Origin: Patescibacteria group bacterium
Lineage (GTDB): Bacteria; Patescibacteriota; Patescibacteriia; Patescibacteriales; UBA12465
Length of the DNA: 64,000 nucleotides
Direction: 5' to 3'
Assembly: GCA_038323715.1 (NCBI GenBank)
Contig: JBBQHF010000004.1
Coordinates: forward strand, 6,159 to 70,158
The notes below the pieces were generated by a model that saw only the letters and a list, made by a program, of their open reading frames with translations, was not told the DNA's origin and did not search any database. The translations under genes were made by a program, and so were the position numbers. Shown here piece by piece: positions 3,217 through 63,088 of this stretch. Each line of letters starts with the position of its first letter. Position 1 is the first letter of the stretch.

Positions 3217-3792
3217 ATGATTGATAAAAAATTCTTAGAAGTTTTAAAAAAAGATTACCAAGCGAATGAAAGTGAAAGACGCCAAATAATAAGCGCTTCC
3301 AACAATATTTTATTTGAAGCAAAAAAAATAATTTTTTCCTTACAACGCCAAGATTTTAAAACTGCTGAAGGAAAATTAACTGAAATAGAAAAAGCCTTAG
3401 CTAATTTGGAGAGTCGTTTTGGCGCCGACAGATTAAAAAAAGAAGGGGCTTACAAGGCGGCGGCTGAAGAATATTTAGAAGGTAAAACTTTTTATTTAAT
3501 CATCAAAAAGAAAGAAATAAAAGCAGTCAGCGGTCTAACCCTTGATTACGAATCTTATCTAGGTGGTATTTGCGATTTAATTGGAGAAATGGTTCGCTAC
3601 GCCACTAATCAGGCAGCTAAAGGCAAGTATTCCGAGGTCGCAAAAATAAAAAAAACCGCCGAGGAAATAATGGCTCAACTGATAGATTTTGATATGACGG
3701 GATATCTCAGAACTAAATATGACCAATCACGTGGTCATTTGCGCAAGTTGGAACAAATGTCTTATGAGATAAAGTTGAGAATAGGAAAATAG
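3217..3792 (+). CDS. Translin-family (COG2178-like) predicted nucleic-acid-binding protein
   Basis: All-helical 191-aa protein. AAEEYLEGKTFY and YLGGICDLIGEMVRYA resemble the translin-family C-terminal signature. Called from memory of the family, not a search. Confidence 0.45.
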   Translation: MIDKKFLEVLKKDYQANESERRQIISASNNILFEAKKIIFSLQRQDFKTAEGKLTEIEKALANLESRFGADRLKKEGAYKAAAEEYLEGKTFYLIIKKKEIKAVSGLTLDYESYLGGICDLIGEMVRYATNQAAKGKYSEVAKIKKTAEEIMAQLIDFDMTGYLRTKYDQSRGHLRKLEQMSYEIKLRIGK

Positions 3793-7975: not shown

Positions 7976-8781
7976 TTTAATAATTTTTTAATACTCGGCA
8001 GCGCTTTTTCAGCTTCTTTACGACCAATATAAATCATCTTTTCCATAATATCTCTAGTAAAATACTGTCTTAAGCTGGTATTTTGAATATGATACGAATT
8101 GTCAGGATTAATAACCACGCTAGCATTTTTTACCTCCGATTGAGATAAGTTATACAAAGCAATGCGCGTGCTTCTCAGTGCAACCTTAGTAAACGTAAAT
8201 CGTTTATCCGTAAATTCTTTTTTATGATAAAGATTAACGGCAATAATTTCATCTGCCCCTGCACCTTGCAGAGCATCAACGGGAACCGGACTACTTAAGG
8301 CCCCATCAATAAAATTATGGCCATGATATTTAACCGGCTCAAAAACAACTGGCACGGAGGAGCTGGCGCGTACAGCTAAAGACAGCTTTCCGGTATGGAA
8401 AACAAAAGGTTCCCCACTCGCTAAGTCCGTGGCAATTATTTTCACAGGAATTTTAGTTTCTTCAAAAGTATGACGGCCAAGAAGATTCTCAATTATCTTT
8501 TCATATTTTCTAGTACTAAGTAGCCCTCCTCGAAAACCAAAATCTGACAAACCCAGTAACCGCCCCTTTTTGGTGTCTAAAAATTTTTCTTCAAGTCCCG
8601 ATATTTCTCCATAGAAAGCATAATAAGCAGCGGCCAGCGCCCCAATTGAAGACCCACTAATAAAATCGATCGGAATATTATTTTCTAACAAAACCTGGAT
8701 TACGCCAATATGAGAAAACCCCCGAAAACCACCAGAGCCAAGAGCGAGTCCTATCTTTTTTCTTTTAGCATTACTGCTCAT
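7972..8781 (-). CDS. Patatin-like phospholipase
   Basis: GSGGFRG oxyanion motif, GSSIG (GxSxG) nucleophile elbow, and IDGAL catalytic Asp motif. Its 3' end overlaps the PLD-like gene start by 4 nt. Confidence 0.85.
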   Translation of the reverse strand: MSSNAKRKKIGLALGSGGFRGFSHIGVIQVLLENNIPIDFISGSSIGALAAAYYAFYGEISGLEEKFLDTKKGRLLGLSDFGFRGGLLSTRKYEKIIENLLGRHTFEETKIPVKIIATDLASGEPFVFHTGKLSLAVRASSSVPVVFEPVKYHGHNFIDGALSSPVPVDALQGAGADEIIAVNLYHKKEFTDKRFTFTKVALRSTRIALYNLSQSEVKNASVVINPDNSYHIQNTSLRQYFTRDIMEKMIYIGRKEAEKALPSIKKLLK

Positions 8782-19856: not shown

Positions 19857-19983
19857 TTTTATGCACAGCTTTTTTGAAAAATATTTTGACAAAGCTGTGG
19901 ATAACTTGTGTTTTATGTGTATAAATATATTTTTTTAGTCCAAGCTATCCTAGACTTAAATTATGTATTTTAATATTTTTACA

Positions 19984-20000
19984 TTAATATTAGCCAAATA
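19984..20000 (+). repeat. Intergenic 17-mer TTAATATTAGCCAAATA (copy 1 of 3)
   Basis: Exact match to 61856-61872 and to the reverse complement of 50741-50757. Confidence 0.9.
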
Positions 20001-50741: not shown

Positions 50742-50757
50742 ATTTGGCTAATATTAA
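50741..50757 (-). repeat. Intergenic 17-mer TTAATATTAGCCAAATA (copy 2 of 3, reverse orientation)
   Basis: TATTTGGCTAATATTAA on the plus strand. The 23-nt extension is identical to the 61855-61877 copy. It ends 6 nt before the 3D-domain gene ATG. Confidence 0.9.
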
Positions 50758-58483: not shown

Positions 58484-59419
58484 TTATAAAGCAATAAAAT
58501 AAAGGCCAATCGCAATTAAAATAACGGCGAATGTTTTTTGCAGAACAATGCGCCAGGAAAAAACATCTTTTAATAACTTGGGAGCCAAGGAAGCTAAAAC
58601 CGCGCTAATGATTAATAGAAAAGCATATTGGAATCCTTGTAGCGCATTTACAATAGCCACTGATCCTAAAAAAATCGCATAATTTTGTAGCATGAAACCA
58701 GAAGCACCTAACATCTGATTTATAACCACTAAACTTTTATTAGCGCCTGGTTGATTATTCTGAAATAATAAAAATATTTGCTGTCTATCCTTTTTTCTAA
58801 TTAAAAATAAGAGCACAAATAATCCCGCGCCTAAACGAGTCCAAAGAAAAGCGCTCAAAAAAGTTTGGTCAGTATAAGAATATTTAGTTATTATAAAATA
58901 CAAAGAATATAAAAAGGCCGACAGCAAGGCTAGCCATAATCCTCCTTTTCCATAATTTTGTCCCAAACGCATCTTCTTCATCACTCTAGTTAAAAAGCTG
59001 CGTGACTGCGGCAAAAAGGCAATCGTTAGAGCTCCGGCCAGTAAAGCAGCCATTCCTCCCCATTGATTGATGGTAAATATTTCTTTAAAAAATAAAATGG
59101 AAAATATAATTGAAAAAATAGGTGTTAGCCCTCCAATAAAAACAAGGATTTTAGCCGCTTCGCCTCTTTTCAAAGATTCATACAAAGACCAAAGCGCCAA
59201 AGCAAAAATAATACCCGCAAAGATATCAAGCAAAAATAAAAACCCTCCGGGCCATTTCATAAACCAAGGGGCTAATCCTAAAACCAGTAAACCCAAAATA
59301 CAAGCAGCAAAAGTATAAGCTAATGAACTCTTTAAAACATTATCAACTACGAACTTATCTAAGAGATTCGCAATTGCTAAAAAAAGATAAGCAGTCAGAG
59401 CAACAAATAACCAGGTCAT
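58484..59419 (-). CDS. EamA/DMT-family transporter
   Basis: 311 aa, 10 TM helices arranged as two 5-TM repeats. Confidence 0.6.
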   Translation of the reverse strand: MTWLFVALTAYLFLAIANLLDKFVVDNVLKSSLAYTFAACILGLLVLGLAPWFMKWPGGFLFLLDIFAGIIFALALWSLYESLKRGEAAKILVFIGGLTPIFSIIFSILFFKEIFTINQWGGMAALLAGALTIAFLPQSRSFLTRVMKKMRLGQNYGKGGLWLALLSAFLYSLYFIITKYSYTDQTFLSAFLWTRLGAGLFVLLFLIRKKDRQQIFLLFQNNQPGANKSLVVINQMLGASGFMLQNYAIFLGSVAIVNALQGFQYAFLLIISAVLASLAPKLLKDVFSWRIVLQKTFAVILIAIGLYFIAL

Positions 59420-61663: not shown

Positions 61664-61855
61664 AAAAAGTAAATGCCACCAATAAGCAGCTAAAATAAAT
61701 AAATTATAATTATATTATAAGGTTTTTAGACATTAAAAGCAAACAAAAAAACTATGATATGGCCCATTTTTTGAAAAATAAAAAATACTTAATTCTAGCT
61801 AAATATGACCTGATAGTAACAGCTTTTCCACAGTTTTTACTCTAAATTATTTTGT

Positions 61856-61872
61856 TTAATATTAGCCAAATA
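61856..61872 (+). repeat. Intergenic 17-mer TTAATATTAGCCAAATA (copy 3 of 3)
   Basis: Exact match. 61855-61877 (TTTAATATTAGCCAAATAAAAAA) equals the reverse complement of 50736-50758. Confidence 0.9.
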
Positions 61873-61956: not shown

Positions 61957-62361
61957 CTAATCGTCTAAAGATGCTTGATCTAAAAAATTTTTTAAAGCAT
62001 GTAAATCTTGTTTGCTTTCATCATAATGATGGGTATTTATACCTACAGAATTTGCACTGTTTATTGCCGCTAAATCATGTTCAAAATATATAACATCCTT
62101 TGCTGTTAGATTATTTTTATGCAGAAATATATCAAAATATTCTGGATTAGATTTTTCTGGGTTATGTTGTAACGTAAATACTTCATATGGCATTTTGTTT
62201 AACTCATATTCCTCGAATTTTTCATTATTTGCTCCAGTCAGAATAATTTTTTTATTTTCATACTTCTCAAGTAATTCATACATGTCTTTAAAAATACCAA
62301 ACTTTCCATCGTCTTTTTTTATTATAAAACAAAATACAGCGTCTACTAAAATAACTTTCAT
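61957..62361 (-). CDS. Small HAD-like hydrolase fold protein with a degenerate motif I
   Basis: 134 aa. ILVDAVFCF stands in place of DxDxT/V. The C-terminal IYFEHDLAAINSANSVGI resembles HAD motifs III/IV. Confidence 0.4.
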   Translation of the reverse strand: MKVILVDAVFCFIIKKDDGKFGIFKDMYELLEKYENKKIILTGANNEKFEEYELNKMPYEVFTLQHNPEKSNPEYFDIFLHKNNLTAKDVIYFEHDLAAINSANSVGINTHHYDESKQDLHALKNFLDQASLDD

Positions 62362-62413: not shown

Positions 62414-62441
62414 AAAAAAACTAGCATAAGCTAGTTTTTTT
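62414..62441. terminator. Terminator 3' of tRNA-Ala
   Basis: AAAAAAACTAGC-ATAA-GCTAGTTTTTTT. Confidence 0.65.
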
Positions 62442-62442
62442 G

Positions 62443-62516
62443 TGGACCATAAGGGACTTGAACCCTTGACCTCTTCCATGCCATGGAAGCGCTCTAGCCA
62501 ACTGAGCTAATGGCCC
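62443..62516 (-). tRNA. tRNA-Ala (GGC)
   Basis: Reverse complement GGGCCATTAGCTCAGTTGGCTAGAGCGCTTCCATGGCATGGAAGAGGTCAAGGGTTCAAGTCCCTTATGGTCCA. The G3:U70 identity pair is present. Confidence 0.9.
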
Positions 62517-62544
62517 TTTAATGCTTAAGTCAATCGCTTACTTG

Positions 62545-62592
62545 ATCCGGATACTTTCTAAGCTCCGTTAGTTGCGAGTTAGCTAATGACCC
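62545..62592 (-). pseudogene. Degenerate copy of the tRNA-Ala 5' half (acceptor 5' strand plus D-arm)
   Basis: Reverse complement GGGTCATTAGCTAACTCGCAACTAACGGAGCT compared with genuine GGGCCATTAGCTCAGTTGGCTAGAGCGCT. No anticodon arm or T arm follows. Confidence 0.45.
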
Positions 62593-62603
62593 ATACTATC
62601 TTA

Positions 62604-62778
62604 ATTGTTCCTTGCAGAACATTCTCCCTAACTGTTTATAATTACTGACGCGTGCTTGATTTACAATATCTAAATCACTGATGTTCTTTGAAGAACATTC
62701 TTACGCCCGTTTTATAATTTTTAAGGGGAACAATCCTGCGCTGTGACTGCAGCGGTCATTGTTCCTTGAAGAACAATC
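62604..62778. repeat. Three spaced copies of a ~21-bp palindromic element (TGTTC-N6-GAACA core)
   Basis: ATTGTTCCTTGCAGAACATTC (62604-62624), GATGTTCTTTGAAGAACATTC (62680-62700) and ATTGTTCCTTGAAGAACAATC (62758-62778). Spacing is 76 and 78 bp. An extra half-site GAACAAT lies at 62728-62734. Confidence 0.8.
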
Positions 62779-62803
62779 AGTAAATACCTCAAACTACCAT
62801 AAA

Positions 62804-62831
62804 ATTATACCTAACCTGAAATAGTTGTCAA
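62804..62831 (-). promoter_or_regulatory. Consensus sigma70 promoter firing toward the palindromes and tRNA-Ala
   Basis: On the minus strand: TTGACA (62831-62826), 16-nt spacer, TATAAT (62809-62804). Confidence 0.6.
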
Positions 62832-62896
62832 TACCAAGCAATACAACTTTATTACGTTCTTGTCAATATATTGACAGAATTACTAATAAATACTGG

Positions 62897-62968
62897 TGTC
62901 CTCACCAGGAGTCGAACCTGGATCTAGAACTTAGGAGGCTCTTGTTCTATCCATTGAACCATGAGGAC
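62897..62968 (-). tRNA. tRNA-Arg (CCU)
   Basis: Reverse complement GTCCTCATGGTTCAATGGATAGAACAAGAGCCTCCTAAGTTCTAGATCCAGGTTCGACTCCTGGTGAGGACA. This is the only tRNA here followed by an encoded CCA (62896-62894). Confidence 0.85.
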
Positions 62969-63059: not shown

Positions 63060-63088
63060 TTGACAAGCTTGTCATATTAACTTAAAAT
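63060..63088 (+). promoter_or_regulatory. Sigma70-type promoter inside the palindrome TTGACAAGCTTGTCA
   Basis: TTGACA (63060-63065), 17-nt spacer, TAAAAT (63083-63088). The -10 overlaps ATG 63087, which argues for the downstream start. Confidence 0.45.

Follow-up and report, generated by a model that had tools for sequence, protein, structure and literature searches.

The stretch of DNA considered here (the window) is 64,000 nucleotides of a contig (JBBQHF010000004.1) from a Patescibacteria group bacterium. It carries genes for tRNA-Arg(CCT) and tRNA-Ala(GGC), both on the minus strand, separated by a spacer of 377 bp. The window's sole other adjacent tRNA pair, Val/Leu, is 37 bp apart, so the first-pass annotation, made from the sequence alone, was right to call the Arg/Ala gap unusually long. 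This report concerns three palindromes within that spacer (W1, W2, and W3 in Table 1). They were recovered by a repeat finder as 21-bp copies with exact TGTTC-N6-GAACA cores, 76 and 78 bp apart, just as they had first been described. The copies are 81-90% alike, and the DNA between them is partly duplicated.

No other exact match to TGTTC-N6-GAACA occurs in the 64 kb. When up to one mismatch is permitted, seven matches are found, against 1.48 expected, a number reached by none of 100 shuffles. The one-mismatch match at 58532 was considered as a further site and rejected: it lies within the coding region of EamA, its position is not conserved, and about 1.5 such matches are expected by chance.

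The spacer has other features as well. tRNA-Arg forms the upstream edge of the palindrome zone, and past it comes a second kind of palindrome, then a promoter that does point into the spacer, as annotated. The ATTATAAA boxes, the isolated half-site, and the G+C hairpin reported at the outset were all found in the sequence. At gathering and at permissive thresholds (E <= 10), Rfam recognized the two tRNAs in this region and nothing else.

Table 1. Elements of the tRNA-Arg/tRNA-Ala spacer and its borders, in window coordinates
Element	Position	Strand	Sequence	Evidence and remarks
tRNA-Arg(CCT)	62894-62968	minus		ARAGORN; Rfam tRNA, 66.5 bits
Perfect 16-bp palindrome	62861-62876		TGTCAATATATTGACA	Just downstream of tRNA-Arg; separate from W1-W3; each arm is a TTGACA hexamer, -35-like
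Sigma-70-type consensus promoter	62831..62804	minus	TTGACA-16-TATAAT	12/12 match; reads towards tRNA-Ala
Palindrome W3	62758-62778		TGTTCTTCAAGGAACA (core, 62760-62775, minus-strand reading)	parS-like; 12/16 identity to TGTTCCACGTGGAACA
G+C hairpin	62739-62754		CGCTG-N6-CAGCG	Window-specific; not in L132 or L134
Isolated half-site	62734..62728	minus	ATTGTTC	Sequence reading
Palindrome W2	62680-62700		TGTTCTTCAAAGAACA (core, 62682-62697, minus-strand reading)	Perfect 7-2-7 inverted repeat; parS-like
Palindrome W1	62604-62624		TGTTCTGCAAGGAACA (core, 62606-62621, minus-strand reading)	In ~76-bp local duplicate of the W2 unit
12-nt fragment	62592..62581	minus	GGGTCATTAGCT	11/12 identity to the 5' end of tRNA-Ala
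tRNA-Ala(GGC)	62442-62516	minus		ARAGORN, Rfam; 93-100% identity among relatives
Intrinsic-terminator-like element	62414-62441			After tRNA-Ala; perfect 12-bp inverted repeat, A7/T7 flanks; repeat finder and sequence reading

Conservation of the palindromes among relatives

A scan of a genome collection for two TGTTC-N6-GAACA sites 50-70 bp apart returned mostly clusters of TGTTCCACGTGGAACA, taken up below, plus one true relative, L070, which bears the label Candidatus Falkowbacteria (loci are cited here by L number). A scan of metagenomes for two sites of a centre-restricted pattern gave 60 loci, and 13 of these are low-GC contigs that share the gene order of the window: DAGK and bactofilin pointing away from tRNA-Arg(CCT), which is followed on its own strand by tRNA-Ala(GGC), a variable small gene, trxB, DUF6938, and EamA. 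An unbiased sample was fetched through homologues of DUF6938, with the palindromes ignored. Six of its loci came with DNA (L184, L185, L186, L190, L191, and L192), and all six have two or more exact sites in the interval from tRNA-Arg to trxB.

The 16 related lineages examined carry two to four sites each, always between trxB and tRNA-Arg(CCT), which is itself present at every related locus. Ten non-redundant loci contain 27 exact sites, all 27 within this zone, and no exact site was found in the remaining ~127 kb sampled from them. The names under which homologues are deposited (Falkowbacteria, Paceibacterota, "Patescibacteria group") point to a clade within Patescibacteria. A search with the proteins of the window yielded a single 6-kb Logan contig, ending inside tRNA-Ala, and viral contigs scanned for the palindromes gave just two unrelated matches.

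An alignment of the window with L132 and L134 shows as conserved blocks the TGTCAA..TTGACA palindrome, the promoter (the two hexamers and a good part of their spacer), and the TGTTC palindromes. W3 aligns with the first palindrome of either relative, its centre flipped, and W2 with the second. All this has been kept while the flanking genes diverged to 58-89% protein identity, and the view of the palindromes as conserved, functional-looking elements is upheld by their presence across the 16 lineages. The TTGACA palindrome near tRNA-Arg is kept as TGTCAAGTATTGACA in L132 and as AGTCAATATAATTGACA in L134; its centre resembles the core of an NrdR box. A related sequence, TTGACAAGCTTGTCA, is found at 63060-63074, within the promoter of the bactofilin gene.

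The place of the sites relative to tRNA-Ala differs from one lineage to another. They lie between the promoter and tRNA-Ala in the window, L132, L134, and L165/L181, and they flank tRNA-Ala on both sides in L070/L130, L156/L162, L185, L186, L191, and L192. In L124, L150/L177, and L151, they come after tRNA-Ala, past its intrinsic terminator and before the promoter of trxB. The order in L177, for example, is tRNA-Ala promoter (8341-8368), tRNA-Ala (8385-8459), terminator (8465-8486), palindromes (8506 and 8577), and trxB promoter (8659-8687), so these palindromes would occupy an untranscribed gap, and the situation in L151 is similar. The distance between sites ranges across relatives from 29 to more than 800 bp. 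Such arrangements speak against the proposal that the cluster is a platform for the regulation or processing of tRNA-Ala.

The centres of the palindromes do not keep one orientation either. On the minus strand of the window they read TTCAAG, TTCAAA, and TGCAAG, but among 35 sites from 13 non-redundant relatives, the tRNA-sense strand has CA as its central dinucleotide in 14, TG in 15, CG in 3, and TA in 3. Both orientations occur within one cluster in L165/L181, and L132, the closest relative of the window at the level of DNA, has the orientation opposite to that of the window. The even spacing and constant orientation stressed by the first-pass annotation thus hold within the window, but neither is kept in relatives. 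Positions 1-5 and 12-16 of the sites are invariant by the criterion of the search. As for the others, Y/R is found at positions 6/11 and mostly T/A at 7/10, with a pyrimidine-purine step at the centre of every site, giving for the clade a 16-bp consensus of TGTTCYT-(CA/TG)-ARGAACA. A clade-type site, and candidate target of ParB, is TGTTCYTCAARGAACA, and TGTTCYNNNNRGAACA is the pattern form suited to genome-wide counting.

The mixed orientation of the centres and the symmetric Y/R pattern fit a symmetric site in double-stranded DNA, read by a dimer, and not an RNA hairpin with a conserved loop. Two alternatives had been raised for the palindromes, and the evidence separates them: RNA hairpins sharing a conserved loop of 6 nt, like a directional site, do not survive the comparison of orientations, while a protein site suits both the mixture and the independence of context. 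The palindromes are very probably a conserved cluster of protein-binding sites in double-stranded DNA.

The zone also has features that bear on other matters. The small gene between tRNA-Arg and trxB differs by lineage (window, L132, L134, L162, L181, L184-L186, L190-L192). In the window it is a 134-aa open reading frame at 61957-62361 without a Pfam match; in other lineages it is kinase-like, ASCH-like, or a lipoprotein (all by eye) or belongs to NUDIX, Ser_hydrolase, or DUF218 (by Pfam). The stretch from tRNA-Arg to trxB is a hot spot of gene insertion. A one-mismatch copy of the palindrome lies ~325 nt into the EamA gene in L134 (12203), L184 (11608), L185 (11612), and L192 (11526), though not in the window, and it probably reflects conservation of coding sequence rather than a site. 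A 13-mer, AATATTAGCCAAA, occurs exactly at 19986-19998 (+), 50743-50755 (-), and 61858-61870 (+), and with one mismatch at 10848 and 49202. These copies are intergenic, and the three exact ones compare with about 0.01 expected by a rough estimate based on composition. Nearly all relatives have AATATTAGCCAAA upstream of trxB, in one orientation or the other, and the motif may be regulatory or associated with promoters throughout the genome. Far from the spacer, at 3217-3792, the window encodes a 191-aa protein that matches the Translin family (PF01997, E = 5.6e-20), a family mainly of eukaryotes and archaea.

Likeness to parS and proximity to the origin

The parS site of Pseudomonas aeruginosa is TGTTCCACGTGGAACA (PMC4368675; PMC7022226), that of Myxococcus xanthus is nearly the same, and the general consensus is TGTTNCACGTGAAACA (PMC7022226 table 1; PMC4368675). 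The sites of the window share 11-12 of 16 positions with TGTTCCACGTGGAACA, and TGTTCTACGTAGAACA of L156/L162, the best match among the relatives, shares 14 of 16. It is the arms that match; the core differs from the CACGTG of TGTTNCACGTGAAACA and TGTTCCACGTGGAACA. No canonical parS, even allowing two mismatches, was found in the window, at any related locus, or in 21 kb around dnaA.

Sites of the same class with aberrant cores do occur beside parAB in other bacteria. The 182 loci from the two pattern scans were probed by tblastn with ParA, ParB, and RsmG of L168 (Pfam finds ParA, ParB_N+HTH_ParB+ParB_C, and GidB in L168 and ParA in L139). parA/parB were present in 78 of the 182, with the nearest palindrome at a median distance of 128 bp. 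Among these 78, 37 lack any site with a CACGTG core, and to judge from record titles and ParA identity, the 37 are mostly Terriglobia/Acidobacteriaceae-like. Their centres are CTGAAG, CTGCAG, CTCAAG, CTTAAG, or CGCAAG, or else vary inside one locus. L139 has five copies of TGTTCCTCAAGGAACA beside parA, and the identical 16-mer is found also in L070, L165/L181, L184, and L186. Because 37 loci have nothing but noncanonical centres next to parAB, core-variant sites hold the classical position of parS in another phylum, and the Terriglobia-like sequences look as if the parS core had been relaxed or re-specified throughout the lineage. The variant 16-mers, TGTTCCTCAAGGAACA included, found no match in the literature searched. 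Distance from parAB is not in itself telling: in many of the scan loci, canonical parS clusters lie away from parAB, some of them near dnaA, and the lack of adjacency is therefore no argument against parS.

The Terriglobia/Acidobacteriaceae-like spacers between rsmG and parA hold 2-7 TGTTCC-N4-GGAACA sites (TGTTCCTGAAGGAACA is a variant site sequence of this kind) with non-ACGT centres (TGAA, TGCA, TCAA, TTAA, GCAA, or variable), in stretches without canonical parS. They include L029, L054, L077, L107, L111, L120, L127, L139, L168, and about 28 more. Palindromes of this class also form tandem arrays in contigs of metagenomic or viral origin: L175 (255-1103), with 17 copies of TGTTCCTAAAGGAACA, mostly at a period of 44 bp; L123 (3772-3919); and L183 (10557-10827), where the copies are inside a repetitive open reading frame.

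The location of the sites is also of interest. In L070/L130, L124, L150/L177, and L156/L162, with gene identities assigned by Pfam, the neighbourhood consists of dnaN and dnaA on one strand, rnpA and yidC on the other, DAGK and bactofilin back on the first, and then the tRNAs, and 3.2-3.5 kb separate the first palindrome from the start codon of dnaA in L070, L124, L162, and L177. DnaA boxes cluster in the dnaA-dnaN spacer of relatives. In the subgroup of the window, infC-rpmI-rplT-secG-SBP-RNase J stands beside DAGK instead. The 911,214-bp contig of L185/L187 has dnaA at 681.8-683.2 kb and palindromes at 714,987 and 716,037, a separation of ~32 kb or 3.5% of the chromosome, and in the relative closest to the window (76% DUF6938 identity), a single contig of 52,388 bp carries both dnaA and the locus. 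GC skew is positive over the full 21 kb of L184-L186. Since it is unbroken, the locus is not itself the origin, which lies on the infC side, in agreement with the position of dnaA. The plus-strand skew of the window, negative overall, points to the same side. From synteny and skew we infer that the cluster of the window is origin-proximal. Origin-proximal location, as expected of parS, is thus found in the relatives, and so are few, clustered copies (two to four per locus) independent of orientation and context. No further palindromes occur in 21 kb around dnaA.

Two other kinds of chromosomal site were considered and rejected. The locus is not oriC, as there is no cluster of DnaA boxes in 62.5-63.1 kb and relatives have no switch of GC skew there, and placement near the origin in multiple copies rules out a dif/Xer site. 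Sequences resembling DnaA boxes are seen in the region. Most lineages have a 9-mer with at most one mismatch to TTATCCACA 40-230 bp upstream of trxB (window, 61824-61832; L124, 6833 and 6883; L150, 2734; L151, 896; L184, 8844; L185, 8890; L186, 8879 and 8890), and in L124, L150, and L151 these 9-mers are interleaved with the palindromes. Elsewhere in the window, away from dnaA, three DnaA boxes (TTATGCACA, TTATCCACA, and TTATACACA) lie within ~65 bp (19859-19924), just past tRNA-Cys and ~60 bp before a copy of AATATTAGCCAAA.

The tentative interpretation favoured here, poised a little on the side of doubt, is that the palindromes constitute a variant parS cluster bound by a putative ParB. A symmetric dimeric protein would read the sites as double-stranded DNA rather than RNA. 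Dimers of ParB would load at these origin-proximal sites and spread or slide outward from them, and the origin region so marked would serve segregation and the loading of SMC. The parS interpretation accounts for the sequence of the sites, their copy number, their confinement to a single locus, their proximity to the origin, and their indifference to the context of transcription. The explanation as a whole, in which conserved double-stranded sites, variant parS, and the by-products of duplication described below are taken together, is close to evenly balanced between acceptance and rejection.

Several considerations weigh against a parS cluster. A motif scan and tblastn with Terriglobia-like ParB and ParA, applied to the window and all related loci, found neither protein in the 64 kb or at the related loci, and neither was seen in the 10 kb on either side of dnaA; we infer from the sites that ParB binds them in these lineages, and searches of the literature for ParB or parS in Patescibacteria gave nothing useful. 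The canonical ACGT centre, which well-studied ParB proteins contact, is missing from the sites. Binding of ParB to the Terriglobia variants is likewise deduced solely from their position. Seven lineages have a site 7-12 nt upstream of mature tRNA-Ala, just past the promoter, a classical position for an operator, and the trxB-proximal site of L124, L150/L177, and L151 is at about -110 from the start site of trxB, which could reflect the architecture of the trxB promoter. Finally, the relatives from the pattern scans were chosen for having two sites, and only the six loci obtained through DUF6938 are free of that bias.

If the sites are parS, how might they have come to be where they are? Possibly, though here doubt outweighs belief, a large clade of Patescibacteria (Falkowbacteria-like plus Paceibacteria-like) re-specified parS, keeping the TGTTCY/RGAACA arms around a CA/TG core, and moved the cluster from parAB to the tRNA-Arg/tRNA-Ala/trxB spacers by the bactofilin gene, while Terriglobia in parallel relaxed the core of sites that stayed beside parAB. 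A more radical version would have the clade lack ParB altogether and some other protein read the sites. parS is usually held to be among the most invariant of bacterial DNA motifs, and genome surveys rely on its CACGTG core to detect it. If core-variant sites are used, such surveys would overlook the centromere both in this clade and among Terriglobia, and the recognition of parS by ParB would be far more plastic than the view of a "universally conserved parS" allows. The matching ParB proteins would be natural specificity variants for the study of how DNA is read, and the sites would offer a first concrete handle on the organization of the origin region in uncultivated, reduced Patescibacteria. 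If another protein binds them, they would still define a conserved origin-proximal binding cluster.

Local duplication and rival readings

The 76-nt units of W1 and W2 align better than 997 of 1000 shuffles, and with units so significantly alike, the regular layout of the window must be partly local duplication. The likeness resides mainly in one block of ~40 nt, AATTATAAA...GAATGTTCTNCAARGAACA. The repeat finder gives for W1 a 38-nt direct repeat of 76% identity (D2). The highest autocorrelation is at a shift of 76 nt.

A broken copy of the acceptor and D-arm of tRNA-Ala had been proposed at 62545-62592. What stands of it is the 12-nt fragment listed in Table 1, which sits 13 nt after W1 and exactly 76 nt upstream of the true start of tRNA-Ala. 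The other 64 nt of the supposed copy have no similarity to tRNA-Ala beyond chance (305 of 2000 shuffles align equally well), the best local alignment of the whole spacer with tRNA-Ala is matched by 50 of 1000 shuffles, and neither ARAGORN nor Rfam calls a tRNA there. On these grounds a tRNA pseudogene was rejected. A decayed array of tRNAs was rejected as well: in units of 76 nt the palindromes do lie close to the register of the T-arm, but the likeness ends after 12 nt, and relatives are spaced otherwise.

In relatives, the genuine tRNA-Ala follows a palindrome by 7-12 nt, and L132 carries the ancestral junction of palindrome, 12 nt, and tRNA-Ala. A tandem duplication of ~76 bp around this junction would yield the extras peculiar to the window. 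The 12-nt fragment is likely a remnant of such an event, and the 76/78-bp spacing, the ATTATAAA boxes, the third site, and the fragment are best explained as its by-products. The original suggestion of repeated partial duplication of a promoter-leader-tRNA unit is in this measure supported by the W1/W2 units and the tRNA fragment, but the palindromes are conserved independently of it.

Unlikely, yet the most serious rival to variant parS, is that the palindromes are operators of some other dimeric regulator, or sites of a nucleoid-associated protein, controlling tRNA-Ala and/or trxB through binding shortly after the tRNA-Ala promoter or well ahead of that of trxB. Inverted repeats of 16-18 bp are typical of helix-turn-helix (HTH) dimers, the first site comes ~25-42 nt past the -10 hexamer in the window, L132, L134, L162, and L181, and the placements noted above (7-12 nt before tRNA-Ala in seven lineages, ~110 nt ahead of the start site of trxB in L124, L150/L177, and L151) would suit an operator. 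However, the placement relative to any single promoter varies across the clade, and no transcription factor gene was annotated within +/-10 kb in seven gene maps. A local operator, with fixed promoter position and a regulator gene nearby, is thus not what is found, although a regulator encoded at a distance would be compatible. The ~127 kb of other DNA sampled from the clade hold no additional sites, whereas AATATTAGCCAAA is present in five intergenic regions of the window alone, and operators would leave unexplained the identity to 16-mers adjacent to parAB.

It is quite improbable that the palindromes act as RNA hairpins in the leader or trailer of the tRNA-Ala precursor, affecting processing, stability, or termination. 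The sites of the window subgroup are indeed transcribed from a conserved consensus promoter, a hairpin would precede the point of RNase P cleavage by 7-12 nt in seven lineages, T/G at positions 6/11 of the tRNA-sense strand would form a G-U wobble in six sites, and folding of the leader is slightly better than that of shuffles (z = -2.1). Yet loops of the UCAA and UUGA types are about equally common and are found together within one cluster, two sites have C/A on the sense strand, and all sites of L124, L150/L177, and L151 come after a terminator and before the next promoter. Neither an Rfam match nor a T-tract after the palindromes was found. Hairpins of a tRNA leader would be always transcribed, with a strand-specific loop or covariation, and the sites are not of this sort.

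Less probable still is that a site-specific recombinase uses them as core sites for the insertion of small gene cassettes beside tRNA-Ala. Arms of 6-7 bp around a short asymmetric centre would suit such an enzyme, as would the flanking of lineage-specific small genes by palindromes in L162, L184, L185, and L186. But palindromes are missing from the trxB side of the variable gene in the window, L132, and L134, no integrase gene was found at any locus, and direct repeats flanking tRNA-Ala, as in L070, would delete the tRNA. An integron attC was rejected because the sites do not fit the attC core motifs.

Least credible of all is a neutral relic of tandem duplication of promoter, leader, and tRNA, in which the palindromes have no function of their own: the 76-nt autocorrelation, the similar W1/W2 units, and the 12-nt fragment would be expected of it, but it is already contradicted by the conservation data, since apart from the promoter only the palindromes stay conserved, and they are present in 16 lineages at differing spacings.

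Comparison with known systems

Short palindromic repeats, regularly spaced in one intergenic region, call to mind repetitive extragenic palindromes and bacterial interspersed mosaic elements (REP/BIME) or the arrays of clustered regularly interspaced short palindromic repeats (CRISPR) and tandem interspaced guide RNAs (TIGR). REP/BIME elements are spread over the genome, however, and the palindromes are confined to one locus. CRISPR and TIGR arrays differ in that the "spacers" of the window are partly duplicated and its locus is syntenic rather than variable; moreover, no cas or tas genes were found in the neighbourhood. With a single locus and repeats merely 81-90% alike, arrays of either sort were rejected. 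Structured 5' leaders and repeat-hairpin elements differ from the sites of the clade, where the orientation of the loop is not conserved. The operators of HTH dimers, such as those of the NarL type (7-2-7) or the tra box of TraR, are similar in length and symmetry, and some of the sites do lie just past a promoter, but the sites of the clade have no fixed relation to promoters, no adjacent regulator gene, and no regulon-like spread.

The parS sites of ParABS systems have more in common with the palindromes. Both are 16-bp inverted repeats with identical outer arms, TGTTC(C)/(G)GAACA, in few copies clustered tens of bp apart. Both are origin-proximal, the sites of the clade being 3-32 kb from dnaA, and both are indifferent to orientation and the context of transcription. 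The cluster is moreover the sole one of its kind in the DNA sampled. They differ in their centres, which in the clade are TCAA/TTGA, GCAA, TTAA, or ACAA instead of ACGT (TGTTCTACGTAGAACA of L156/L162 is the exception), in their separation from parAB, with a partner ParB that is putative, and, in the window, in their situation inside a transcribed tRNA leader. Closest are the clusters between rsmG and parA of Terriglobia/Acidobacteriaceae-like bacteria. These lie directly upstream of parA-parB, a link that the Patescibacteria sites do not have. In other respects, the clusters, of 2-7 copies 35-140 bp apart, share with the palindromes their arms, their non-ACGT centres, and even entire 16-mers, TGTTCCTCAAGGAACA and TGTTCCTTAAGGAACA.

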